DNA of 64,000 nt from sequence record MT446421.1. One strand, written 5' to 3'. This stretch comes from Escherichia virus TH55. A program made the translations under genes and the position numbers. Below, piece after piece: positions 9,278 to 20,205 of the stretch (position 1 is the first letter of the stretch; each line of letters opens with the position of its first letter). Below the pieces are notes generated by a model, which saw only the letters and a program-made list of their open reading frames with translations, did no database searches and was not told where the DNA came from.

Positions 9278-9577
9278 TTAGAAAGAACCAGAACCTTTAA
9301 TTGTGTTCTGGCGACCTTTATTTTCTAATTCAGAATGGTCGATTTCGTATGCTTGTGCTACACCAAAGGCCTTTTTAACTTTAGCTAAAGAGCCTTTAGA
9401 TGTGACAATATTAAAAGTATTGCCTTTAGTAAAATCAACCAAATCCACTTGTACACCCTGTTTACCGAGGCTTGCTACAATAGCATCAACATATTGTTGG
9501 TCTAAATTGCCCTGGACTCCGATTTGAAATGCTTTGGGAGCTTTGGCTTCAGTAATAAATTCTTGATAAGTTTTCAT
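9278..9577 (-). CDS. internal-protein-like protein with capsid targeting sequence
   Basis: starts MKTYQEFITE, the T4 IP capsid-targeting leader with L/I-x-E cleavage site; adjacent to denV as ipII/ipIII are in T4. Confidence 0.55.
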   Translation of the reverse strand: MKTYQEFITEAKAPKAFQIGVQGNLDQQYVDAIVASLGKQGVQVDLVDFTKGNTFNIVTSKGSLAKVKKAFGVAQAYEIDHSELENKGRQNTIKGSGSF

Positions 9578-9625
9578 TTTATATTCCATTGTTTGGTTAA
9601 TAAAATCATTATACAACCTTTTTAG

Positions 9626-10042
9626 TTAAGCGTACACAGCTTTCCCATAGTATTTGTACCAAGCAGGCTTTTGAGAAATTTTCTCATTCAGTCTAGCTTG
9701 ACTGATTTCAATTGACCAGATTGATGGTTGATAATCATTCTTCCATTCATCAGGAATATCAGTTAAATCTTGGGTAGAAATATCTTTTATGTTAAACCCT
9801 CGCTTTAAACATTCCGCAATAAGTTCTTGATGCCGGTTTTTAAGGAACAAAAGCTTATCATAAAAGAAGGTGACATGACCAGTCCCTAAAAGGAAAGATG
9901 ATGGGATTTTAAAGTCAGAAACCTTTTTACCATTTTGTACATGCTTACGAACAGCACCAAACACGCGAGGAAGCTCACGATATTCAGCCATAAGATGTTG
10001 GTCAGCGAGTTCAGATACCAGGGTTAAGTTAATGCGAGTCAT
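9626..10042 (-). CDS. denV: endonuclease V (pyrimidine dimer DNA glycosylase)
   Basis: 138 aa, [35 protein letters not shown]... near-identical to recalled T4 DenV. Confidence 0.9.
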
Positions 10043-10095
10043 GTTTGTTCTCCGTAGTTGATAGGGTCATTATAACCCTATCATTTGGAGATGTA
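10043..10095 (-). promoter_or_regulatory. early promoter/hairpin cassette (family 1) upstream of denV
   Basis: coding strand tgtaca...atagggt TATAAT gaccctat caactacggag ATG; -10 inside inverted repeat. Confidence 0.45.
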
Positions 10096-10097
10096 CA

Positions 10098-10367
10098 TCA
10101 TTTCTTAGAGTATTGACCCATAAGTTTAGCGATATCACCCAATTTCTGATTAAACAAATAATCCACTTCTTTGCCAGATTTATCTACAATTTGCCACTGA
10201 CCATTTCCTTTGTTGCCAAAGGTCCAATCACCGACTTTAAATGAAGTTCCATTAACTTTTTTAATAGAAGTAAACTCAAAGCCTTCTTTCTTAGCTAAAA
10301 ATGCCATGCGGCTTTCATCTGATTCATTTAATACAGATTCAGCCAAAAATTCTTGATACGTTTTCAT
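10098..10367 (-). CDS. internal-protein-like protein with capsid targeting sequence
   Basis: starts MKTYQEFLAE; 89 aa. Confidence 0.55.
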   Translation of the reverse strand: MKTYQEFLAESVLNESDESRMAFLAKKEGFEFTSIKKVNGTSFKVGDWTFGNKGNGQWQIVDKSGKEVDYLFNQKLGDIAKLMGQYSKK

Positions 10368-10375
10368 ATTTTACC

Positions 10376-10867
10376 TTATTTGTATGCGTCAAAAGTTCCG
10401 GTGCGGAAAGTTTCAATAACTCGTTTAGCCCGGTTCGGAGTCTGGACTTTATACCATCTTGAGTCTGCCAGTTCCTTGGCAGCCGCTTCCCATGATTTAG
10501 CCTTCAGCAATCGCATACCCTTAGGAAAACCCGCAACACCAGCAACACCCATCTGGAATACCATATTAATGAGTGCACAACGACGAACTTCATCAAGTAC
10601 ATCATAAACAGGTTTTAAGACAGGATGTCTCAAGATTCCGGCTTTAGCCTTTTCGACCGAACGGTTAAACAGTGTTTCGGCTTCGTGTTGGGTTATACGA
10701 CCATTACAGACGCGACCCATGAGCTTATCGAGCTCGGCGCGAGCAACATCTTTAGATGGGTTCTTAGTTATCAGTTGCCCGATGCCAATGGTCCAATAGC
10801 CTTCAGTATCTTTATACAAATCCAACTTACAACCTTCATCTATGCGTAACATTTCGAATATATTCAT
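10376..10867 (-). CDS. e: endolysin (T4 lysozyme)
   Basis: [12 protein letters not shown]...[13 protein letters not shown]...[12 protein letters not shown]...[22 protein letters not shown] matches T4 lysozyme. Confidence 0.92.
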
Positions 10868-10893
10868 AATACCCCCTTATATAGGGGTATTTA

Positions 10894-11352
10894 TTATCCG
10901 AAAATTTGAGTCATTACCTTGTACATCGATTTGCCCATCACATACTGCCATTGACTCGGTTTAATCAGAGCAAATGCATCGAACTCTGGAACCGAACTAC
11001 CATCCGGGAAGGTATGATAGGCAGAGCATTTACTATGTCTAAACTGCTCATGCTCAACCGGAACCGTGTACAAAAACAGGTGAAGATTTTTGTTATCTGA
11101 ATAACGGAACTCACCCAGGTCCTTTAAGAATGCCGGGTCGTATTGGGTAAACCCGGTTTCTTCTTCGGTTTCACGGATAGCCGCTTCAATCGGGGATTCA
11201 CCAGCTTCAACATGGCCCTTAGGGATGTCCCATTTATGTGCAGGCATACCTGGTTTACGAGAACAAGTCACACGACCCATGAATAACTCTTTATCTTCAG
11301 TCATGAAAATAATGCCAGCAGATAATTCTTTCACCTTGTTTTTCTTACTCAT
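10894..11352 (-). CDS. nudE: Nudix hydrolase
   Basis: Nudix box GHVEAGESPIEAAIRETEEETG; position after e as in T4; start at MSKKNK. Confidence 0.8.
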   Translation of the reverse strand: MSKKNKVKELSAGIIFMTEDKELFMGRVTCSRKPGMPAHKWDIPKGHVEAGESPIEAAIRETEEETGFTQYDPAFLKDLGEFRYSDNKNLHLFLYTVPVEHEQFRHSKCSAYHTFPDGSSVPEFDAFALIKPSQWQYVMGKSMYKVMTQIFG

Positions 11353-11581
11353 CGTCACGTTTCCATGATTGGTTAAAAATATCACTCATTAAAAATTCAA
11401 GTCTATTTTCCAATGAAGGGCTTTCACTACTAGAAACTTGAACCATGTAGTCGGAAATAGGTCGGAACATATCCAAGTCAGTTTCTAAATCATCTTTGAT
11501 TTTCTCTTCTGATGTACCTGTATCATAGGAATACAGATAAGAATCACATGACTCTGATTTAATATAAATTGCAATACTCAT
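11345..11581 (-). CDS. hypothetical acidic protein
   Basis: 78-aa ORF. Confidence 0.4.
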   Translation of the reverse strand: MSIAIYIKSESCDSYLYSYDTGTSEEKIKDDLETDLDMFRPISDYMVQVSSSESPSLENRLEFLMSDIFNQSWKRDDE

Positions 11582-12165
11582 TTACGGCATTCCTCAATAA
11601 AGGAGTTCAATGTATTTTTCTTAGTGATATCGTCATATACCTTTTTAACTTTAGAAATACGAAAAGGTACTTCAATAACCATAGTCCATAAAAATGATGC
11701 AATAAGTCCAGCAAGAGCAGTAGAAAAGCACGCACCCATTACAGCTACGGGTGCTTCATTTTTGCCTGTCAAGAAAAACCACAGGAATGGTAAAAATAAG
11801 ATTCCAGCCCAGGCATAAAACCTGGAACAAATTAACTTATCAAATTCATCACTCCAGGTACGAAATCCATATTTCTTGCTATAAGAAATTAATGGGTCGG
11901 GTGTCTGTTCTTTGAGTGGTTCTGGTTGATACCCATTAATGATATATCCCATTTTATATTCCTTAATTAAAAGCTCTTTCACATGACGATTGCATCGCGA
12001 CCAATCAACATTTTCCACCTTGATTCCTTCATCACCATCATCAAGGTTCGCCCAATATTTTTTGGTAATCATAAATTCATCTCTTGATACAATTATACCT
12101 GCATTTTCCGACCGACGGATGAAGTTTACATCAACACCCATACAACCCGGCTCATAAAGGGCCAT
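11578..12165 (-). CDS. hypothetical membrane protein with C-terminal FIEECRK tail
   Basis: 195 aa; soluble N-domain, two hydrophobic helices, basic tail ending NSFIEECRK. Confidence 0.45.
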   Translation of the reverse strand: MALYEPGCMGVDVNFIRRSENAGIIVSRDEFMITKKYWANLDDGDEGIKVENVDWSRCNRHVKELLIKEYKMGYIINGYQPEPLKEQTPDPLISYSKKYGFRTWSDEFDKLICSRFYAWAGILFLPFLWFFLTGKNEAPVAVMGACFSTALAGLIASFLWTMVIEVPFRISKVKKVYDDITKKNTLNSFIEECRK

Positions 12166-12851
12166 TACCAGCCCTCCATAGGGAATTCCAGATATACTTG
12201 AGCATTAACGCGGATTTCATTTGTAATCTTTTTAACACGGTCGGTATTACGAGACACACGACCAAACCAGCGCCAACCGTTACTTACTGCGCGAGAACCT
12301 GTATGCCATGTCTGCCAATCAAACTGGAGCAACGTGCGGTCAGGAGCATCCCACTTGGCTAATTCATTGGACTCAATTTTTTCCAGAACTTCTTTATGCC
12401 ACTGACGATAGATAAGTTCGCCTTCAGGAATCTGACTAAATTGTGCAGTTCCGGTTGCAAAATAAGTAGGACACACATCAGCGTTAACAAGACCAAGAAT
12501 ATGTTCAGAATGGTAACGAGGATTATCATAATCAGGTTGCCCTGCAGTAATAAAGTGTTGACCAACCGGAATATCCGGGCGTGGTACATCGTCATGGTGA
12601 TAACCTGGGATAGCAGGATACCAACCAGGCATCAGCATATGAACCCGAGAATCAAATACAACCTGGTCGGTGTTCCAATCATCCGGCAGACTCATAATAA
12701 AGCTACGAGTAATAGGACCGCCATTGTCAAAAGCGAAAGCCAATGAGCTGTTGAAGAACATAGTTTCGTTTTTGATTTTATCATTAGAAATTTTACCAGC
12801 GAAACTGCCTACTGCATGAGCTTGAGAATTAAAAGTTTTTGGACCGTTCAT
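12165..12851 (-). CDS. hypothetical protein
   Basis: 228-aa ORF preceded by promoter/hairpin cassette. Confidence 0.45.
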   Translation of the reverse strand: MNGPKTFNSQAHAVGSFAGKISNDKIKNETMFFNSSLAFAFDNGGPITRSFIMSLPDDWNTDQVVFDSRVHMLMPGWYPAIPGYHHDDVPRPDIPVGQHFITAGQPDYDNPRYHSEHILGLVNADVCPTYFATGTAQFSQIPEGELIYRQWHKEVLEKIESNELAKWDAPDRTLLQFDWQTWHTGSRAVSNGWRWFGRVSRNTDRVKKITNEIRVNAQVYLEFPMEGW

Positions 12852-12905
12852 AATATTTTCCTCATTGATTGTGGGACCATTGTGTCATAGTCCCACTTGG
12901 ATGTA
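12852..12905 (-). promoter_or_regulatory. early promoter/hairpin cassette (family 1)
   Basis: inverted repeat gtgggac/gtcccac then caatcaatgaggaaa before ATG; GTGTAC upstream. Confidence 0.4.
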
Positions 12906-12910
12906 CACAC

Positions 12911-13891
12911 TTATTTTTCGAAAGGACGAATTAAATGTTGGTTAGCCTTGAAACGTTTAACATAGTCTTCGTGACCCAGGGTGTTGTACATATTAACCAC
13001 TTCCTGGTAATGTTCCCAGGCATACTCGCGGAACCATCCAGAAGTAATGGAGGTGCAGACTTTTTCCAGCGCAATATGGAAGCTCACGGATGGAGAGATA
13101 TTGAACTCATTGGGAACCTGCGAACGCTCCAGAGCGAGTACACATGCTTCTTCATAAACCCCTGCCAGTTTAATAATCTCAGGGAGTGCTTCAAATTTTT
13201 CACGCGAGGTCATAACTTCTGAATCATCTTTCATATAGAACTTATATGCAGGCTTATCAGCAAGCGCCACGGCCTCGTGGATGGAGTCATGGTCAAGGGT
13301 ATAGATTGTATCATTAAAGAAAGTTTTCTTGCCCACGTCTAGTTTAGGGTGACTATATGACAATGTTTCTGCCTGGCGCTGCAGCATGATTTTATGCAGT
13401 TCGTCATTAAGAACAACCCCCTTATTGCGAAGGTAATTAATATGACTCATGGTCTTCAGGAAGAATGGATTGTTCTTCAGGTAACGATGAGACAATTTAA
13501 TTGCCAGACAAATATCAGGAGTCGCCCAGTAAAAACCAGATAGACGGTCTTTCTGAATATTTGCCTTCGCATATTTGAGTAAACGATAACTGGAGGTAAA
13601 ATCTTCCTCTTGTAGCTCATCAGTCAGCTCACGAACACTTGTCAATGCGCGGACGATGTACGCTTCAAAATAGGTTTCTTTACCATTGTGCATACATTTA
13701 AAAGCTTGAACATCTGGGTTATCCACATGCACATGTTGTCCCATCATCTGGGTTTTAAAGCTATTCCAGGAGCCCTGGTCAGCGATAAAGTCCCAATCAG
13801 AGTTTTCAATTTTCTGACTTTCAATCAGACCAGCGTTATGTAATGCACGAGAACCAATAACTAACATCATAATATTTTCCTCAAATAACAC
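12911..13891 (-). CDS. hypothetical protein (326 aa)
   Basis: long ORF; N-terminal VIGSRAL...SDWDF loosely NTase-like, unconfirmed. Confidence 0.45.
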   Translation of the reverse strand: MLFEENIMMLVIGSRALHNAGLIESQKIENSDWDFIADQGSWNSFKTQMMGQHVHVDNPDVQAFKCMHNGKETYFEAYIVRALTSVRELTDELQEEDFTSSYRLLKYAKANIQKDRLSGFYWATPDICLAIKLSHRYLKNNPFFLKTMSHINYLRNKGVVLNDELHKIMLQRQAETLSYSHPKLDVGKKTFFNDTIYTLDHDSIHEAVALADKPAYKFYMKDDSEVMTSREKFEALPEIIKLAGVYEEACVLALERSQVPNEFNISPSVSFHIALEKVCTSITSGWFREYAWEHYQEVVNMYNTLGHEDYVKRFKANQHLIRPFEK

Positions 13892-14122
13892 TTAAATTTC
13901 AGCAGCAGAGATATTAGATTCATCTATCATCTCAGAGGCGGACCCCTTAACGATAGGAACCAATTTGCCATAGAGGTCTTCATTATAAGGGTCGTTGATA
14001 CAGTGTGCATCTTCAAAACGAACACCGTAATCAGACTTCTTATAAACGAGACCGTAAATCTTTGTAAACTTAGCACGACTAATTTTTACAGGCTCATCAG
14101 TCATTGGGGCGTAATACCACAT
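13892..14122 (-). CDS. hypothetical protein
   Basis: 76-aa ORF behind promoter/hairpin cassette. Confidence 0.4.
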   Translation of the reverse strand: MWYYAPMTDEPVKISRAKFTKIYGLVYKKSDYGVRFEDAHCINDPYNEDLYGKLVPIVKGSASEMIDESNISAAEI

Positions 14123-14180
14123 AATGTTTTCCTCATTAGTTGACGAAATAATGATACTACATTTCTTTAGGCTTGTACAC
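14123..14180 (-). promoter_or_regulatory. early promoter/hairpin cassette (family 1)
   Basis: coding strand GTGTAC...gaaat gtag TATCAT t atttc gtcaactaatgaggaaa ATG. Confidence 0.45.
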
Positions 14181-14225
14181 TAAATTTCTGCACATAAGTC
14201 CTCCTATCACATCCTTGTGATTAAA

Positions 14226-14453
14226 TTATTTTCCTAACGAAATACGAGTAGGTTTTTTACCGAAATATTCTTCATAGGAACCATCTAAACGACCTGCTTT
14301 AGACCGACAGTATGAATCATACTTTTTGTAATAAGTCAACTCTGTATTGTAACGTGGATGTCTATCAGCCATAATAATACTTAACGGCCAGCCTTTAGCA
14401 TAATCGATAAGACCATTTATTTTACGAATATATCTTTTCTTTAATTTTAGCAT
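14226..14453 (-). CDS. hypothetical basic protein
   Basis: 75-aa ORF. Confidence 0.35.
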   Translation of the reverse strand: MLKLKKRYIRKINGLIDYAKGWPLSIIMADRHPRYNTELTYYKKYDSYCRSKAGRLDGSYEEYFGKKPTRISLGK

Positions 14454-14680
14454 GAGCTTGGGTACCAGATTTTACCATCGGCACGAGCAACGAAGGTGCG
14501 ACCAGCTTCTTCACCATAACAAGAGCTGTTCAACCAGTCTTCAAGACGGACTTCGCCGTCATAATCATCAAGCTCGACACCGAAATCTTGAGCAGAAGCC
14601 ATATCTTTTACTTTCTTATACAGCGCGGCCAGTTCAAGGGCAGCTTTTTCTAATTCAGCATGTTCAACAGCAGTAGTCAT
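14447..14680 (-). CDS. small protein, paralog family with C-terminal W-x-SS-C tail (member 1)
   Basis: 77 aa; N-terminal helix, ends WYPSSC; internal WLNSSC. Confidence 0.45.
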   Translation of the reverse strand: MTTAVEHAELEKAALELAALYKKVKDMASAQDFGVELDDYDGEVRLEDWLNSSCYGEEAGRTFVARADGKIWYPSSC

Positions 14681-14689
14681 TTTATCACC

Positions 14690-14920
14690 TTAGCAAGTCA
14701 TAGAGGAGTTAAACCAGAAACCCTGGCCATCATTGATGCCGTAATCACTGCGAATCCAGTCATATTCTTCATATTCTTCGCTAGAAGCCGGAATATAACG
14801 TTGGAAACGGTCTGCGGCGTGTAAATTAAAAATTTCACCGGTTTTATCGGCTAACTGCTCACCTTCACAGATTAGTGCACGGATTTGGTCTTCAATTTCT
14901 TTAACAGTTTTAGTAGTCAT
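14690..14920 (-). CDS. small protein, paralog family (member 2)
   Basis: 76 aa; ends FWFNSSMTC. Confidence 0.5.
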   Translation of the reverse strand: MTTKTVKEIEDQIRALICEGEQLADKTGEIFNLHAADRFQRYIPASSEEYEEYDWIRSDYGINDGQGFWFNSSMTC

Positions 14921-14929
14921 TTTATAACC

Positions 14930-15127
14930 TTAGCATTCATAAGAGGAGGACACCCAAGAGGTACCGCTAATAGTAATACAACCATTATAAAGCGTAATAT
15001 GTTGTTCCAGATTACGCTGACCGTCAATATAGATATCAGCTTCTTCGCGTTCTTCTTTGCAAATCTGGATAACGTTTTCAATAGCTGCCGCGGCAGTACG
15101 GATTGCACAATCTAATTCACGAGACAT
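14930..15127 (-). CDS. small protein, paralog family (member 3)
   Basis: about 65 aa from MSRELD; ends SWVSSSYEC. Confidence 0.5.
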   Translation of the reverse strand: MSRELDCAIRTAAAAIENVIQICKEEREEADIYIDGQRNLEQHITLYNGCITISGTSWVSSSYEC

Positions 15128-15135
15128 ATAATTCC

Positions 15136-15417
15136 TTAACATTCAGAAGAGGAGGACACCCAACCGCCATTTTCTAGGTCGGTTGTGTAGTCATGAGTAT
15201 TAACAATAGCCCATTCAGGATGACCATCTTCTTCCCAATGAGCAAGGTCAGCTTTCAAGGCGCCAGGAGAATAATAGTCACCGCCCATACCGCGAGCAGG
15301 GTATATATTAAAATGAGTCTCATATTTGTCTGCAATTTCCTCAGCACGGCGAATGGCTTCATGGATTTCTTTTACTGCGGCCAGAAGCTCTGGTTGGTTA
15401 TGGTTATCATTCATCAT
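15136..15417 (-). CDS. small protein, paralog family (member 4)
   Basis: 93 aa from MMNDNH; ends GGWVSSSSEC; longer ORF-track start is a spurious extension through member 5. Confidence 0.5.
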   Translation of the reverse strand: MMNDNHNQPELLAAVKEIHEAIRRAEEIADKYETHFNIYPARGMGGDYYSPGALKADLAHWEEDGHPEWAIVNTHDYTTDLENGGWVSSSSEC

Positions 15418-15418
15418 A

Positions 15419-15709
15419 TTAGCACATCTCAGAAGAGGAAACCCAGGCACCAACAGTAACAACGCCGTTTTCAACTCGCCCGCCGTTGTTTTCAATATGG
15501 TGAGCGAACCATTCGGAACATTCATAACCAACTGGATGATATGTACGGCCGGTGCCGTAATCACCAGTGCTGAATTCGATACCATATTCATCTGCGATTT
15601 CTTCACAGTGTTTTTCAATTTCAGAGGTCTTATTTAGAAGAGAATAGATGGCTTTTTCTGCAGATTTCTCATCATAATACTTGGGGATAGCAATTTCAAT
15701 TTTATTCAT
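15419..15709 (-). CDS. small protein, paralog family (member 5)
   Basis: 96 aa; ends GAWVSSSEMC. Confidence 0.5.
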   Translation of the reverse strand: MNKIEIAIPKYYDEKSAEKAIYSLLNKTSEIEKHCEEIADEYGIEFSTGDYGTGRTYHPVGYECSEWFAHHIENNGGRVENGVVTVGAWVSSSEMC

Positions 15710-16152
15710 GATTTACATTCCTTAATAAAGGTTTCAAGGTCATTACGTTTTGTTTTGTCTAGGAACTTATTATACTCAGCCATTGCCAAAGCGTATCTCT
15801 TTCGGCTGGGAGCATTCACGGCATTTGTGTGACAGATATCATACACAACCGGGATAAAATAAGCCACAACAGCCGGAGCAATTATCATAAAGAAGCCCAT
15901 CTCAATAGGCATGACTCCCTCGATTGCAGCCATAACCGTGGTCATTACCAGACCAACCAAACCACCAAGCATGGCAGTGACAATCCCCAATAATAAATTG
16001 CCGCCAATATCATATTCAGCCAATTGATAAACATGTGATGCAAGACTAGGCCGTTCCATTACGAACCTCCTTAATAAATTCTTCGGCACATTTAATTTTG
16101 TGCTCTTCTTGTAGGGAAACACATTTTTGTTCCCACTCTTTAACTCGTCCAC
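15706..16152 (-). CDS. hypothetical membrane protein with C-terminal FIKECKS tail
   Basis: 148 aa; two hydrophobic helices; start may be internal Met near 16059. Confidence 0.45.
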   Translation of the reverse strand: MDELKSGNKNVFPYKKSTKLNVPKNLLRRFVMERPSLASHVYQLAEYDIGGNLLLGIVTAMLGGLVGLVMTTVMAAIEGVMPIEMGFFMIIAPAVVAYFIPVVYDICHTNAVNAPSRKRYALAMAEYNKFLDKTKRNDLETFIKECKS

Positions 16153-16441
16153 GGTATCCTTTATTCATATGATTTTGATGCCACACATTTATCAAAATCA
16201 TACTCAGGACTGTAATAAAAGGAGCTGCGATTATTAGCGCCCAGGCAACTCCAACACTAATGATACTCATATCCCCACAAAGCACCATCATTATAACCCC
16301 AACGATGCATATGGACAGGGCCCCAAATGCTGGCATAAGGTCTTTATCAATTTTGTCTGCGTATACAAATTTTTCTGGTTTACTTGGCAGATATAACGTT
16401 CGCATTTTGAACCCCTTTAGCATATTCACGACATTCAGCAA
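16046..16441 (-). CDS. hypothetical membrane protein
   Basis: 131 aa; two hydrophobic helices; tail EEFIKEVRNG; overlaps both neighbours in other frames, start uncertain. Confidence 0.4.
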   Translation of the reverse strand: MLNVVNMLKGFKMRTLYLPSKPEKFVYADKIDKDLMPAFGALSICIVGVIMMVLCGDMSIISVGVAWALIIAAPFITVLSMILINVWHQNHMNKGYRGRVKEWEQKCVSLQEEHKIKCAEEFIKEVRNGTA

Positions 16442-16952
16442 TAAAACGATTAAGCTTACGTTTCCGTTTACGACCCTCTAATGTATACTCAGCCGCCAAA
16501 TCAAGAAGCTCATCTTTATCATAATTTTTAATATCAGTATAAGTTGGGCGGCGGTCAACCATTCCAAAGTGGTCACCATTTTCCAACATCAAATAACACA
16601 CCAAATGGTCATCATCGTCCGCATTAATAAGCTGCTTATAATCACTTGGTTCATTTAACGCATACACAGAATAACTCAGCCCAGCGAATTCCACTCGTTG
16701 AATACCCAGATTTACGTCAATAATTTCCAAGGCATCTGCAAAAGAAAGGTCTTCAGCTAAAGCAAAAATAAAAGGCAATTTGGTAGTATCGCCGCGACTT
16801 GTTGTTCTTCTTAAGAAATCATTGGAATAGCCCAAGTCGCGGCGGATTCTATAAAGAACTGTGTTAGTTTCAGTGGCAAGACCACTACCGCCAAACCATT
16901 CCACATTTGATAAAAGATTATCATATAAAGTCATAATTTTCTCCTCTCCCAA
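16380..16952 (-). CDS. hypothetical protein with KRKRK...FIAECRE tail
   Basis: 190 aa soluble ORF; C-terminus overlaps next gene. Confidence 0.45.
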   Translation of the reverse strand: MGEEKIMTLYDNLLSNVEWFGGSGLATETNTVLYRIRRDLGYSNDFLRRTTSRGDTTKLPFIFALAEDLSFADALEIIDVNLGIQRVEFAGLSYSVYALNEPSDYKQLINADDDDHLVCYLMLENGDHFGMVDRRPTYTDIKNYDKDELLDLAAEYTLEGRKRKRKLNRFIAECREYAKGVQNANVISAK

Positions 16953-16976
16953 TTAGGGGGCTTTGCCCCCTTTATC

Positions 16977-17570
16977 TTACTTAAGTGAATTGATGTATTC
17001 TTCAATGTCAGCGGACGTGGTATCCACACCAACCTGTGGACCTTTGAAGGTTTCAACACGCATCAAGGTGTCTTCAATATCAATCTTAGTCAATGCAGCG
17101 ATTTCAACAACATCATCTGCAGTCGCAATACCCAGGGCAGATACCTTACGGGTTTCGCGGATGTATTCCAGTTTAACAGCTAGTTCCTGACGAGAATCAT
17201 CCAGCTCTTTAACTTTCAATTTAATTTCATTACGCATTTCAACATAATCGTCTGCCTTCTTACGAAGTTGTTTAGCAGTGCGACGATACAGGAGACCCAG
17301 TTTAGCATGGACCTGGACATCAGCACCATCAGCAATCAGTTTGCGGATTTCACGCTCTTTTGAGGCGGCGAGTTGGTCTTTTTCATTCGCTAACTCGCGG
17401 ATGCGTTTTTCTTCATTAACAGACTTAACGTGGGCGGTCTGGAGCTCAGTAATCTTGTCAATCAGGGTAGACGCCGCTTGAGTATATTGGTCTTCAATAG
17501 ACAGGTTTTTTGCCATTGCAGTACCCAGTTTGGAGCGGATGAATTCAACAAGTTTCTTTAAAGTATTCAT
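16977..17570 (-). CDS. coiled-coil protein (possibly PspA/IM30-like)
   Basis: 197 aa, long charged heptad-like helical segments. Confidence 0.4.
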
Positions 17571-17642
17571 GGTATTTCCTTCAGTTGGTTAATGTTTTAT
17601 TATCCAGGGAACATACTATCATGTTCCCATTAAAGCACTAAT

Positions 17643-17948
17643 TTAGATTTTGTTTTCCTGCACACCATAGTAAAGTTCATCAGACACAATATCCAGGATG
17701 CGGCGAACATATTCATCATGGTATTGGCAGTCAAAATCAAATGCAACAGTAGTTTCCGCTTCACGAGTGAATTTAACTTGCACATTCAGGTGATTAACAA
17801 CGTTAGTTAATTTATCAGTAAAGAACTCTTTTGCTACCGCCTGTTGGACTTGTACTTTGAACTTGGTGTTGCGAATCATATTTTCAGCAGATGCGAAATT
17901 ACCAGTTTTATCAAAGTCAACAAGCGCCAGGTTGATGATGAATTTCAT
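17643..17948 (-). CDS. hypothetical protein
   Basis: 101-aa ORF behind family-2 promoter cassette. Confidence 0.45.
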   Translation of the reverse strand: MKFIINLALVDFDKTGNFASAENMIRNTKFKVQVQQAVAKEFFTDKLTNVVNHLNVQVKFTREAETTVAFDFDCQYHDEYVRRILDIVSDELYYGVQENKI

Positions 17949-18010
17949 TTTATTCTCCAGTGTTTTATTTGGTAACTCAGTATGGAATCATTATGCCTTA
18001 AAGCAGGGGG
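17949..18010 (-). promoter_or_regulatory. early promoter/5' leader cassette (family 2)
   Basis: coding strand CATAAT gattccatactgagttaccaaataaaacactggag ATG. Confidence 0.45.
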
Positions 18011-18034
18011 CTTGTATACCCCCCCCTTTTTGAA

Positions 18035-18478
18035 TTAAATTTCAAATTCTTTGCGGAAGTTGGAAGCATAAGACTGAACTGATGCTTTGTTGAACCCAAA
18101 CTCACGCACAATCATATCAATAACAGCTCTGCGAGCAGCACCATTAGACATATTAACAGTTTTGAACATATCATAGCATAAATCTTTGTTGCTCATACCG
18201 GAGCGTTTAGGTGCCTTACGTTCAGCTTTTGGTTCAGCTTTAGGAGTAGGTTTAACTTCTGGTTTAACCTGTCCATCATTCAGACCTTTAAAAATTTTAC
18301 CTGCCAGAGTTGCCAGTTTAGCAGCTTCGCCACGAGTGATACCAAATACTGCCGGGTTAAATGAAATACCTTCAGCTGTCAGACGTTTGAAGAACATACG
18401 GGCTGCGGATTGTGCTTCAGCTTCAGAAGAGTTGTTTAATGCCAGTTTAACGTACTTAACCAGTTTTGAAGTTTTCAT
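18035..18478 (-). CDS. hypothetical protein (paralog of 18562..18987)
   Basis: 147 aa from MKTSKL; C-terminal NGAARRAVIDMIV...VQSYASNFRK shared with neighbour. Confidence 0.45.
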   Translation of the reverse strand: MKTSKLVKYVKLALNNSSEAEAQSAARMFFKRLTAEGISFNPAVFGITRGEAAKLATLAGKIFKGLNDGQVKPEVKPTPKAEPKAERKAPKRSGMSNKDLCYDMFKTVNMSNGAARRAVIDMIVREFGFNKASVQSYASNFRKEFEI

Positions 18479-18540
18479 TTTATTATCCCGTTTGTTTATT
18501 TGGTAACTCAGTATGGGATAATTATACATTATCCCACCTG
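18479..18540 (-). promoter_or_regulatory. early promoter/hairpin cassette (family 2)
   Basis: coding strand GTTTTAC...gggata atg TATAAT tatccc atactgagttaccaaataaa...ATG. Confidence 0.5.
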
Positions 18541-18561
18541 GAAGTAAAACACTTTTCTCAA

Positions 18562-18987
18562 TTATTTTTGAGCTTTGCGGAAGTTGGAAGCATATGACTG
18601 AACAACAGTCTTTTTGATATCATGGGTGTTAACCAGAACATCAATCAGAGCGCGACGAGCTGCACCATCTGCCATATCAATTTCTGCAAATGCCTGGAAG
18701 CAAATGTCACGAGCATTACCAGATTTTGACTGGATTTTTTCTTCTTTAACTTCTTCAATTGGGAATTCAATCATTTCAGCTTGGATTAATTCAATGATAG
18801 ATTCTTTTGACTGTTTGGTGTTTACCTTCAGTTCAGAATTAAGGGACTTGGCGATGGCAACAATCTGGGTTGAAGTCAGATGAATAAGTGCATCTTCACG
18901 AATGCAGATTTCACATACTTCATCGGCAACCATTTTGTTGGTGATGCGGGTAACAGAGAATGCAGAGGTCAGGGTCAGGAAGTTCAT
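18562..18987 (-). CDS. hypothetical protein (paralog of 18035..18478)
   Basis: 141 aa from MNFLTL; C-terminal DGAARRALIDVLV...VQSYASNFRK. Confidence 0.45.
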   Translation of the reverse strand: MNFLTLTSAFSVTRITNKMVADEVCEICIREDALIHLTSTQIVAIAKSLNSELKVNTKQSKESIIELIQAEMIEFPIEEVKEEKIQSKSGNARDICFQAFAEIDMADGAARRALIDVLVNTHDIKKTVVQSYASNFRKAQK

Positions 18988-19060
18988 TTTATTTCTCCAA
19001 AGTTTTGTTTGATTCAGTGTGTAACTCAGTATGGAATCATTATGCATCCAGTCAATTCGG
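18988..19060 (-). promoter_or_regulatory. early promoter/leader cassette (family 2)
   Basis: coding strand GTGTAC...CATAAT gattccatactgagttacacactg...ggag ATG. Confidence 0.45.
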
Positions 19061-19108
19061 ATGTACACTACTTTTTGAAGAAAATTTCAAATTTATTCGG
19101 GGTATAAA

Positions 19109-19127
19109 AAAGCCCGCAATGCGGGCT
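19109..19127 (-). terminator. rho-independent terminator
   Basis: agcccgc aat gcgggct hairpin next to A-run (T-run on minus strand), right after stop of 19129..19683. Confidence 0.5.
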
Positions 19128-19128
19128 G

Positions 19129-19683
19129 TTAGTTCTTATAAAAGCGGAACGGATTTATATGAAAGGCGAGCATAGCCTTAGGGATTGGTCGGGACAGAAG
19201 GCTCTTGAGCTTCCAACCACAATAAACGCGCAGATAAAAGGTGATTCCACCGACCTTGAGATAAGGAACAGAAGCAAAAACACCCCAGGCATTATCCGTC
19301 CACATCCAGAGCCATCCGTGATGAGCTTTATCCGGGGAACCGGATTCAACATCAGGATTGCCTTTATAATGGAATTCTGAATTGCAATCACGACCGAGCT
19401 TGTGGTAAGCAAAATTGTATGCTTTGTTTCGCCAGAGCCAAGCTACTCGTTGGAAGTAAACACCTAACGGCCATTTTCGGATTTTTGACCAACGTTTGAC
19501 ATGACCCCGGTCACCATCAATCGGATTATCATAAGTCATCATCCAATCAAACCCGAACGGAAGTTTACCAGTCTTTTTATTATAGAATGGAACTACAAAT
19601 GGAGCCAGGATAACGGCCAGAATCATGGAGATAAAATCCAGTGGAACTAACAGAATCCAACTCAAATATTTTAACAGTTTCAT
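19129..19683 (-). CDS. hypothetical membrane-anchored protein
   Basis: 184 aa from MKLLKYLSW with N-terminal hydrophobic helix; longer ORF start runs through upstream terminator. Confidence 0.45.
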   Translation of the reverse strand: MKLLKYLSWILLVPLDFISMILAVILAPFVVPFYNKKTGKLPFGFDWMMTYDNPIDGDRGHVKRWSKIRKWPLGVYFQRVAWLWRNKAYNFAYHKLGRDCNSEFHYKGNPDVESGSPDKAHHGWLWMWTDNAWGVFASVPYLKVGGITFYLRVYCGWKLKSLLSRPIPKAMLAFHINPFRFYKN

Positions 19684-19706
19684 ACGTTTCTCTTTAGTTG
19701 ATTTAT

Positions 19707-19735
19707 AAAAAAGCCCCAACCTTTCGGAAGGGGCT
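19707..19735 (-). terminator. rho-independent terminator
   Basis: agcccc...ggggct stem with tcgg-type loop and adjacent A-run on plus strand. Confidence 0.5.
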
Positions 19736-19772
19736 ATACCTTGTCGGGGTTCCACCTGCAAGGCAAGTGTTC

Positions 19773-20168
19773 TTATCCGCGAGCGAATGCCATTGCAGCG
19801 CGTTCGTTAGCACGGTCGGTGATGTTCAAGAATTTATCACGAGCGATTTCGATTGGAGCACCAACCCAGTCAGCAGCACCATTACCTGGAGACTGTTTAG
19901 GGCGAACCATATAAGTTGAAACTTTGGAACCGGCTAGTTTGGCACCAGGTGCCGCGGCATTTTTAACGTCTTTAGCTTTGATGCCAAACCCAGTTACGAT
20001 ACCCCAAGAAACGCCATTAACTGGTTTCTTGAACATAACACGGTCACCAATTGAAACACCGGCTTTTTCTGGAGCCACTAAAGAAAATTTACCAGCTTCA
20101 GTCAGTACGGATTCGGTGATGGTATTGCGATTTAAAAATTCTGCATATGTAAGCATTTTGTTTTCCAT
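19773..20168 (-). CDS. hypothetical protein, possible internal-protein-like leader
   Basis: 131 aa; N-terminus MLTYAEFLNRNTITE loosely resembles the MKTYQEFIAE leader. Confidence 0.4.
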   Translation of the reverse strand: MENKMLTYAEFLNRNTITESVLTEAGKFSLVAPEKAGVSIGDRVMFKKPVNGVSWGIVTGFGIKAKDVKNAAAPGAKLAGSKVSTYMVRPKQSPGNGAADWVGAPIEIARDKFLNITDRANERAAMAFARG

Positions 20169-20205
20169 TATTAGGGTTGTTGTTAATATTTATATTCCAT
20201 AGTAC

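Follow-up and report, generated by a model that had tools for sequence, protein, structure and literature searches.

Nucleotidyltransferases (NTases) that covalently modify small partner proteins include GlnD, a bifunctional uridylyltransferase acting on the small signalling protein PII, and MntA, which AMPylates HepT; the acceptor residue in these systems is Tyr. In the gene clusters of ribosomally synthesized and post-translationally modified peptides (RiPPs), tandem precursor genes are located upstream of the gene for the modifying enzyme, and Ser and Cys residues are modified. MenA1 is a long-helix protein of 68 amino acids (aa) whose gene lies upstream of that of MenT1; it blocks MenT1 and induces auto-phosphorylation on an active-site Thr (PMC10435456; PMC11375011). 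NTases of the MenAT/AbiE group can phosphorylate a Ser or Thr residue that is placed at the active site (PMC10435456; PMC11375011). Here, we analyzed a stretch of 64,000 nucleotides (nt) from Escherichia virus TH55 (MT446421.1; hereafter the window), which carries an array of five small tandem genes on the minus strand and, downstream of it, a gene for a DUF7277+DUF7275 protein with an NTase fold. Array-type genes and the enzyme gene are linked near-obligately in both directions, across 24 or more lineages of large phages that otherwise lack synteny. We infer, with a probability of about 0.5, that the five genes are the small-partner half of a two-gene module with the downstream enzyme, which their products would serve as acceptors or regulators. 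An earlier reading of this DNA (the original prediction) missed the downstream half, the conserved NTase-fold gene at 12911..13870; the array is not free-standing. The interpretation offered there is partly supported, and the locus becomes a candidate for an uncharacterised, widespread two-component phage system.

The lead came from two unrelated metagenomic contigs that were found via distant members of the small family, each of which has a gene for a DUF7277+DUF7275 protein of ~300 aa just downstream. The linkage was tested from both sides, via the enzyme gene and via a DNA pattern for YGMGGTY that is blind to the enzyme. For the forward test, DUF7275 homologs with 10 kb on either side were taken from 80 IMG/VR loci, which represent 28 lineages at 60% identity and reach down to 38% identity to the window protein. 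These loci contained 172 open reading frames (ORFs) of the small family, all on the enzyme strand. Of these, 162 fell into the 3-kb zone upstream of the enzyme gene, compared with 7 in all other sequence (1.2 Mb). Between one and six family copies were present per enzyme locus. The pattern of the C-terminal tail alone, applied without any profile, gave 218 hits among 1093 ORFs in the upstream zone versus 8 among 8016 elsewhere. A tail-bearing ORF was present in 24 of 27 lineages, a count that is fairer than the raw numbers because many of the loci are related, and most enzyme loci scored as empty contain divergent family members. When all ORFs were clustered, the small family was the only other cluster broadly common to the enzyme loci. 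Since no further cluster is widely shared and the flanks are non-syntenic, the linkage is not a by-product of synteny.

In the reverse direction, the YGMGGTY DNA pattern retrieved 73 loci. An enzyme gene was located within 1.4 kb on the same strand in 32 of the 32 family loci with enough downstream sequence, and was absent from all loci where the pattern was matched by chance only. The module was found in Pseudomonas Otagovirus PPSC2, which has at least five small members, and in Acinetobacter Lazarusvirus (phage Berthold). The enzyme family itself spans T4-like, rV5-like, Otagovirus and jumbo phages.

The five ORFs of the original prediction were all recovered in tandem on the minus strand at 14447..15709. 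ORF1 (15419..15709, 96 aa) ends in the tail WVSSSEMC (codons 15422–15445), of the type G-A-W-V-SSS-E-M-C; ORF2 (15136..15417, 93 aa) ends in WVSSSSEC (15139–15162) and has an R-G-M-G-G-D-Y-Y motif. The most divergent member is ORF3 (14930..15127, 65 aa), which consists of a helix and the tail WVSSSYEC (14933–14956) and is devoid of the Gly-rich motif. An alternative ATG at 15142 would extend it to 70 aa, and the start at 15127 is favoured by the orthologs and by phrog_4882. The tail of ORF4 (14690..14920, 76 aa) is WFNSSMTC (14693–14716), and ORF5 (14447..14680, 77 aa) carries the motif twice, as an internal WLNSSC and a terminal WYPSSC (14450–14467). The isoelectric points (pI) of all five proteins are acidic (4.4–4.75).

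In the five-way alignment, one W, two S and the terminal C are invariant. Scanning the 419 window ORFs of at least 40 aa showed that W-x(1-3)-S-S-x(0-3)-C-COOH is present in exactly five of them, the array members. A family hidden Markov model (HMM) built from 62 diverse members likewise matched the array's five only (E ~1e-22 to 2e-5). The tail similarity noted in the original prediction therefore exceeds chance. The shared N-terminal helix noted there is backed by the alignment and by a confident AlphaFold2 (AF2) model of ORF1 (predicted local distance difference test score [pLDDT] 91.3, predicted template modelling score [pTM] 0.77), in which helix 14–42 is followed by a short beta-meander and the tail. 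Profile matches placed ORF1 (E 8e-23; family HMM E 2e-22), ORF2 (E 1.4e-19), ORF4 (E 1.4e-14; family HMM E 2.2e-17) and ORF5 (E 8.6e-10) in phrog_899. ORF3 matched phrog_4882 (E 3.8e-36) and the family HMM (E 1.8e-5), and phrog_899 weakly (E 0.19). ORF2 was detected by tblastn in 281 phage records.

The intergenic gaps from ORF1 to ORF5 are 1, 8, 9 and 9 nt, and every junction consists of TAA followed by GG (TAAGGT or TAAGGA), a Shine-Dalgarno (SD) sequence 7–8 nt ahead of the next ATG. ORF1 begins with an ATG that overlaps the stop codon of the membrane-protein gene ahead of it; at the other end, the last codons of ORF5 are overlapped by the ATG of the following gene. These overlaps at the end genes and the TAA-GG junctions place the array within a long operon with translational coupling. 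In the window, 20 copies of the T4 late-promoter motif TATAAATA were counted, where 5 are expected. No minus-strand copy was found within 4198–20187, the block that includes the array, and this fits early or middle transcription of that block. The array is probably expressed early or middle from the coupled operon. A GC-rich palindromic hairpin, AGGGGGCTTTGCCCCCT, is located at 16955–16971, in the short gap between an e.6-like gene and the next gene upstream of the array, and is a possible terminator or RNA-processing site.

The small family was delineated by an exhaustive profile search over 1.8 billion representatives (E<1e-3), with clustering at 50% identity. It comprises 107 clusters, nearly all of 65–140 aa, and the match extends to the final residue. 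This breadth needed the exhaustive profile search; two word-indexed protein searches with family alignments reached close T-even relatives only. The family consensus is ...EAExIADExG-x-F-x-F-x-x-A-Y-G-M-G-G-T-Y-Y-P...(variable acidic)...G-x-W-[VI]-S-S-S-x-x-C. Specifically, an N-terminal helix with EAExIADE is followed by a Gly-rich Y-G-M-G-G-T-Y-Y-P hairpin, a variable acidic middle and the tail that ends the protein. The terminal Cys is present in 131 of 140 family sequences and the tail W-x(1-3)-S-[ST]-x(0-3)-C in 137 of 140, with the Ser-to-Cys spacing varying among subtypes. The Gly-rich hairpin is degenerate or lost in some paralogs. Within the array the motif is altered in ORF1 (DYGTGRTYHP) and ORF2 (ARGMGGDYYSP), degenerate in ORF4 and absent from ORF3 and ORF5, so that it marks a core subfamily and not all members.

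Scans of the five ORFs against Pfam, NCBIfam and PADLOC gave sub-threshold noise only, no PDB sequence match was found for the small proteins, and no solved structure matched the ORF1 fold. PHROG 899 and 4882 are known families without assigned function, and their entries omit the tail motif and the linkage to phrog_2141/DUF7275. No characterised relative was found: a Pfam model, a solved structure of a relative and an assigned function are all lacking for the family.

Several more distant sequences were noted around this family. Some ORF5-type homologs (P0007 and P0008) have a predicted N-terminal hydrophobic, transmembrane-like extension of 20–25 residues, so that they are membrane-anchored variants or had their starts mis-called. 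In one lineage (L043, L052, L054, L056, L058, L060 and L061), ORFs of 104–202 aa ending in ...Y-D-Y-G-W-N-[VI] are located directly upstream of tail-bearing genes. These ORFs (e.g., 9289–9693 in L058) match the family profile weakly (E 5e-5 to 7e-3) and may be tail-less relatives of the family. The original prediction recognised no T4 homolog, and scanning the whole T4 genome likewise revealed neither a homolog of the small family nor a DUF7275 gene. The sole T4 ORF with a marginal profile match (E 0.003, 14 bits) is gp49.3 (47823–48131 in L163; 102 aa, ending in ...EVSSWWCEK), which represents noise or a very distant relative without the tail. T4 e.2 and e.3 were considered as homologs and rejected, as their translations are unrelated.

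The paralogs of the array are mutually 25–31% identical, and some pairs align at the tail only. Each ORF is 55–99% identical to its counterpart in Dhakavirus, Mosigvirus, and phages of Klebsiella, Enterobacter, Citrobacter, Yersinia and Serratia. Orthologs of every ORF were found in dozens of related phages, and the same tail types recur across those genomes, including Gaprivervirus. The median pairwise ratios of nonsynonymous to synonymous substitution rates (dN/dS) among orthologs are 0.15, 0.31, 0.21, 0.24 and 0.06 for ORF1 to ORF5, respectively. These comparisons indicate that the five genes are true, anciently diverged paralogs under purifying selection. The original prediction had proposed a locally amplified, diversifying arms-race family; this part is not supported, because the paralogs are ancient, the ortholog types are kept across genera, and dN/dS is well below 1.

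An explanation in the same vein is that the five genes encode independent host-takeover or anti-defence effectors, locally amplified and diversifying, whose proximity to the enzyme gene is mere co-transcription. The location is that of an accessory region: judged from the annotated relative SP18, the array sits between nudE and the tRNA genes, as originally placed. The proteins are small, acidic and of no known function, the copy number ranges from 1 to 6 among phages, and the absence of a minus-strand late-promoter motif from 4198–20187 suits early or middle expression. Independent effectors of this kind are difficult to reconcile with the low dN/dS in all five genes and with the recurrence of every ancient paralog type across genera. 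Furthermore, in non-syntenic distant phages such as jumbo phages and Pseudomonas Otagovirus, the genes adjoin a single enzyme family in a strand-specific manner, which is not accounted for by chance co-transcription. In PADLOC, which is not a dedicated anti-defence library, neither the five ORFs nor the enzyme and three neighbours had a match. Taken together, we regard this explanation as quite unlikely.

The nucleotide sequences of the 3' ends were inspected with regard to another explanation, in which their conservation reflects an RNA or DNA element (a coupling signal, an anti-SD-like CCUCC or a terminator) or the ORFs are untranslated. The DNA motif aagaggaggacaccca had been described in the original prediction as common to the 3' ends of the array, and this could not be upheld. 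The exact 16-mer occurs only twice, at 14941 (ORF3) and 15147 (ORF2), while ORF1 has 3 mismatches and ORF4 and ORF5 lack it. On the coding strand, the repeat reads tgggtgtcctcctctt (14941–14956 and 15147–15162, in the tails of ORF3 and ORF2) and holds the anti-SD-like CCUCC. It could be a codon coincidence of W-V-S-S-S or a small gene-conversion tract. The exact repeat shared by two tails, and the stop codons that form the SD of the next gene together with GG, are what an RNA or DNA element has in its favour, yet three of the five tails are without the 16-mer. Across 128 distinct homolog tail DNAs, the peptide is kept while Ser is encoded by each of its six codons and Cys by either of its two, and synonymous differences between close orthologs occur inside the tail. 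An Rfam search of the array gave no match, and RNA folding of the array junctions was no better than shuffles (z -0.55 to +1.33). The ORFs also have dN/dS below 0.35 over their full length, and the AF2 model is confident. With no Rfam match, no fold beyond shuffles and varying tail codons, the RNA element is rejected as the source of the tail similarity and its likelihood is minimal; the tail is conserved and selected at the protein level.

The partner enzyme gene (12911..13870, minus strand) encodes a 319-aa DUF7277+DUF7275 protein with a Pol-beta-type NTase fold and a helical domain, and starts 577 nt downstream of ORF5 (ORF5 end 14447, enzyme start 13870). Its Pfam matches are PF23942 (E 2e-27) and PF23940 (E 1e-75), and it also matches phrog_2141. 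The AF2 model is confident (pLDDT 90.2, pTM 0.84), and the closest solved folds include MenT1, MenT3 and MenT4. The fold comparison gave values of 8.1 for the MenT1 toxin, 7.2 for TglT/MenT3, 6.5 for ANT(2''), 6.4 for MenT4 and 6.0 for LnuA. In the catalytic G-S...D-x-D signature, G6, S7, D25 and D27 are invariant in 80 of 80 homologs, and the third carboxylate, E69, is present in 73 of 80. Additional invariant or near-invariant residues are K125, H128, K139, H194, D195, H198, E240, E241, E248, R249, C272 and R281. According to the sequence and the model, the enzyme retains an intact catalytic signature of the Pol-beta NTase type and is folded like MenT. It is called MenT-like in fold only, and not a member of that family, because no AbiEii/DUF1814 Pfam match was found among 30 homologs up to E 5 and no PDB sequence match was found for the enzyme. 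An assignment of DUF7275 as an HD-type phosphohydrolase, considered from the invariant H128, H174, D193-H194-D195 and H198, was supported neither by Pfam at E 5 nor by a PDB profile search (best match RNase L, E 0.12) and stays a guess. The enzyme family comprises 2062 database proteins (E<1e-3), with matches in 731 of 50,697 phage records. All homologs are annotated as hypothetical except for a few labelled 'putative nucleotidyltransferase'.

We propose that each small protein would dock on the enzyme via its conserved helix, which would place the Ser/Cys tail at or near the catalytic centre. The tail could then accept a phosphoryl or nucleotidyl group on its Ser or Cys, or the small protein could regulate the enzyme; the neighbouring enzyme is a candidate for modifying the tail. 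Helix and tail would together form the interface to one shared enzyme, and the variable middle would give each paralog its own downstream specificity. Up to six distinct copies may be kept per single enzyme gene because the variable middle differentiates paralogs that share one enzyme.

The similarity of the fold to MenT1, MenT3 and MenT4 raises the possibility that the small proteins are pure antitoxin-like inhibitors, which would neutralise or time a toxic MenT-like and potentially tRNA-modifying NTase aimed at the host, as in MenA1/MenT1 or AbiEi/AbiEii. The order of a small gene upstream and an NTase gene downstream agrees with this, as do the small size, the acidic pI and the long N-terminal helix of the proteins, and MenA1 is itself a 68-aa helix-based inhibitor (PMC10435456). 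One inhibitor would suffice, whereas up to six divergent paralogs, each long under purifying selection, accompany one enzyme. The tail is the most conserved feature here, whereas the C-terminus of MenA1 is dispensable (PMC10435456). An addiction module is of no obvious use to virulent phages, the enzyme shows no DUF1814 match at the sequence level, and it is not basic (pI ~6.2–6.4). An argument from opposite charges, with acidic partners on a basic enzyme, was considered and discarded, since the enzyme is near neutral. A pure inhibitor role is considered unlikely, and the partner role (acceptor or adaptor) is ranked above it because several divergent copies are retained per enzyme gene.

Several points weigh against the proposed partnership. 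Three loci of two enzyme lineages (L047/L048 and L029) have no recognisable partner. Many of the loci are phylogenetically related, and the raw counts overstate their independence. In the window, two lineage-specific ORFs are located between the array and the enzyme gene, and the AbiEii/DUF1814 match is missing from the enzyme homologs.

The tail might instead bind a metal (e.g., Zn/Fe chelated by the terminal Cys) or be cross-linked within the protein (e.g., by a Ser-to-Cys thioether). Its role would then be structural or redox, and the enzyme would not act on it. The invariant terminal Cys offers a free carboxylate beside the Ser hydroxyls, and the subtype that includes ORF5 has a second internal W-x-SS-x-C and thus two Cys residues. 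A single Cys is all that ~40% of the family sequences contain, so that these proteins would be short of ligands for a site of their own. Among the neighbouring genes covered by Pfam scans, none encodes a maturase-type domain, and the obligate linkage to the enzyme gene would be left unexplained. We consider this role of the tail very unlikely.

Returning to the tail as a possible substrate of the enzyme, C272 is a Cys in 80 of 80 partner-linked homologs. The short DUF7275 forms (251–263 aa) of Streptomyces, Gordonia and Vibrio (KVP40-like) phages have Ile at this position, and no tail-bearing small ORF was found near the short-form loci (3878–4633 in L159, 3663–4454 in L160 and 4102–4863 in L167). 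This correlation is a hint of Cys chemistry and is weak evidence because the short forms differ in many further ways. A more specific and doubtful proposal is a so-far undescribed modification system, in which the enzyme would use nucleoside triphosphate (NTP) to phosphorylate or nucleotidylate the tail Ser. Elimination and attack by the terminal Cys might then close a thioether ring at the C-terminus; alternatively, C272 might take part in a Cys-Cys or metal relay. The outcome would be up to six chemically armed small proteins with differing targets in the infected cell.

The two ORFs between the array and the enzyme gene are both on the minus strand. The 75-aa ORF at 14226..14453 (phrog_7065, E 2e-43; dN/dS 0.07), whose start overlaps the end of ORF5, is restricted to the T-even-like group. 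It is not among the cross-lineage clusters and is outside the broadly conserved module. The 76-aa ORF at 13892..14122 (phrog_3723, E 1e-28) is directly upstream of the enzyme gene, is confined to this lineage and is likewise not among the cross-lineage clusters. Elsewhere, a gene of ~490 aa is located ~5 kb upstream of the DUF7275 gene in 7 lineages (L035–L038 and others), and the N-terminal sequence of its product looks like nicotinamide phosphoribosyltransferase. Metallophosphatase genes are near the module in 6 lineages, with two on its flanks in L005. In Gordonia phage Culver, the short-form DUF7275 gene is 1.3 kb from a tRNA cluster (5707–7834 in L160), and in Streptomyces phage Blueeyedbeauty it is 1.3 kb from an RNA ligase gene (1872–2531 in L159). 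tRNA genes were found within 10 kb of the long-form enzyme in 8 of 28 lineages, and their proximity was discarded as uninformative with regard to a tRNA substrate.

The Escherichia phage UPEC07 (Gaprivervirus, T-even-like Tevenvirinae; MW250787) is 100% identical to the window, and its deposited annotation leaves out ORF1. A 456-nt extension of ORF2 (112559–113014 in UPEC07; window region 15136–15709) is named 'tail completion protein', and ORF5 and a nearby 76-aa ORF are labelled 'major capsid protein'. SP18 annotates all five genes separately, as hypothetical. No profile backs the two labels in UPEC07 and related records, and they were rejected as annotation errors. The 160-aa version of ORF2 from TTG 15618 overlaps ORF1 and was rejected as an artefact. 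The present result corrects the mis-annotations of these genes in deposited genomes.

Both gene sets, until now separate 'hypothetical proteins', become one testable system, which can be searched for by a simple rule: an ORF with the tail, located upstream of DUF7275. The intact catalytic residues of the NTase and the invariant Ser/Cys end of the small proteins provide a clear biochemical handle. If the enzyme is MenT-like in behaviour, phages would carry a multi-partner form of an NTase system that has so far been described for toxin–antitoxin (TA) and abortive-infection loci of bacteria. A covalent acceptor function of the tail would amount to a new protein modification in phage infection. 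Literature searches on phrog_899, the RB69ORF139c and JS98 gene names, DUF7275/DUF7277 and phage-encoded DUF1814 enzymes found nothing relevant.

Among known systems, RiPP precursor arrays resemble this locus in having tandem paralogs upstream of an enzyme gene, with a conserved recognition part and a variable part. The conserved Ser before a terminal Cys recalls lanthipeptides and AviCys, a resemblance drawn from general knowledge. In contrast to leader-core peptides, the proteins here are folded and 65–100 aa in length (AF2 model of ORF1, pLDDT 91); their Ser/Cys end is conserved and their middle variable, with a Ser-to-Cys spacing that differs by subtype. Pfam scans of the enzyme and six flanking proteins gave DUF7275 and DUF7277 only, with no LanB, LanC, LanM, LanD, YcaO or radical-SAM domains. 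GlnD–PII and MntA–HepT share with the module an NTase-fold enzyme and a small protein as covalent acceptor, and are precedents for reading the small proteins as acceptors. The acceptor is a Tyr in those systems, whereas a C-terminal Ser/Cys tail would take this place here. No homology to GlnD, PII, MntA or HepT was detected, and no HD, ACT or HEPN domains appeared in Pfam scans. With MenAT1 and the wider MenAT and AbiE systems, the locus shares a small long-helix protein encoded directly upstream of a Pol-beta-type NTase, and its enzyme has the Pol-beta core (hG[GS]...D-x-D plus a third carboxylate) in a MenT-like fold. The small proteins showed no homology to MenA1 or to COG5340/AbiEi antitoxins. 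Unlike those systems, the module is found in virulent phages instead of chromosomal TA loci. Its enzyme is without a DUF1814/AbiEii sequence match and has a distinct helical DUF7275 domain of ~190 aa. Its partners have the invariant W-x-SSS-x-x-C end, a beta-meander and a fold without a solved match, and one to six divergent partners accompany each enzyme.

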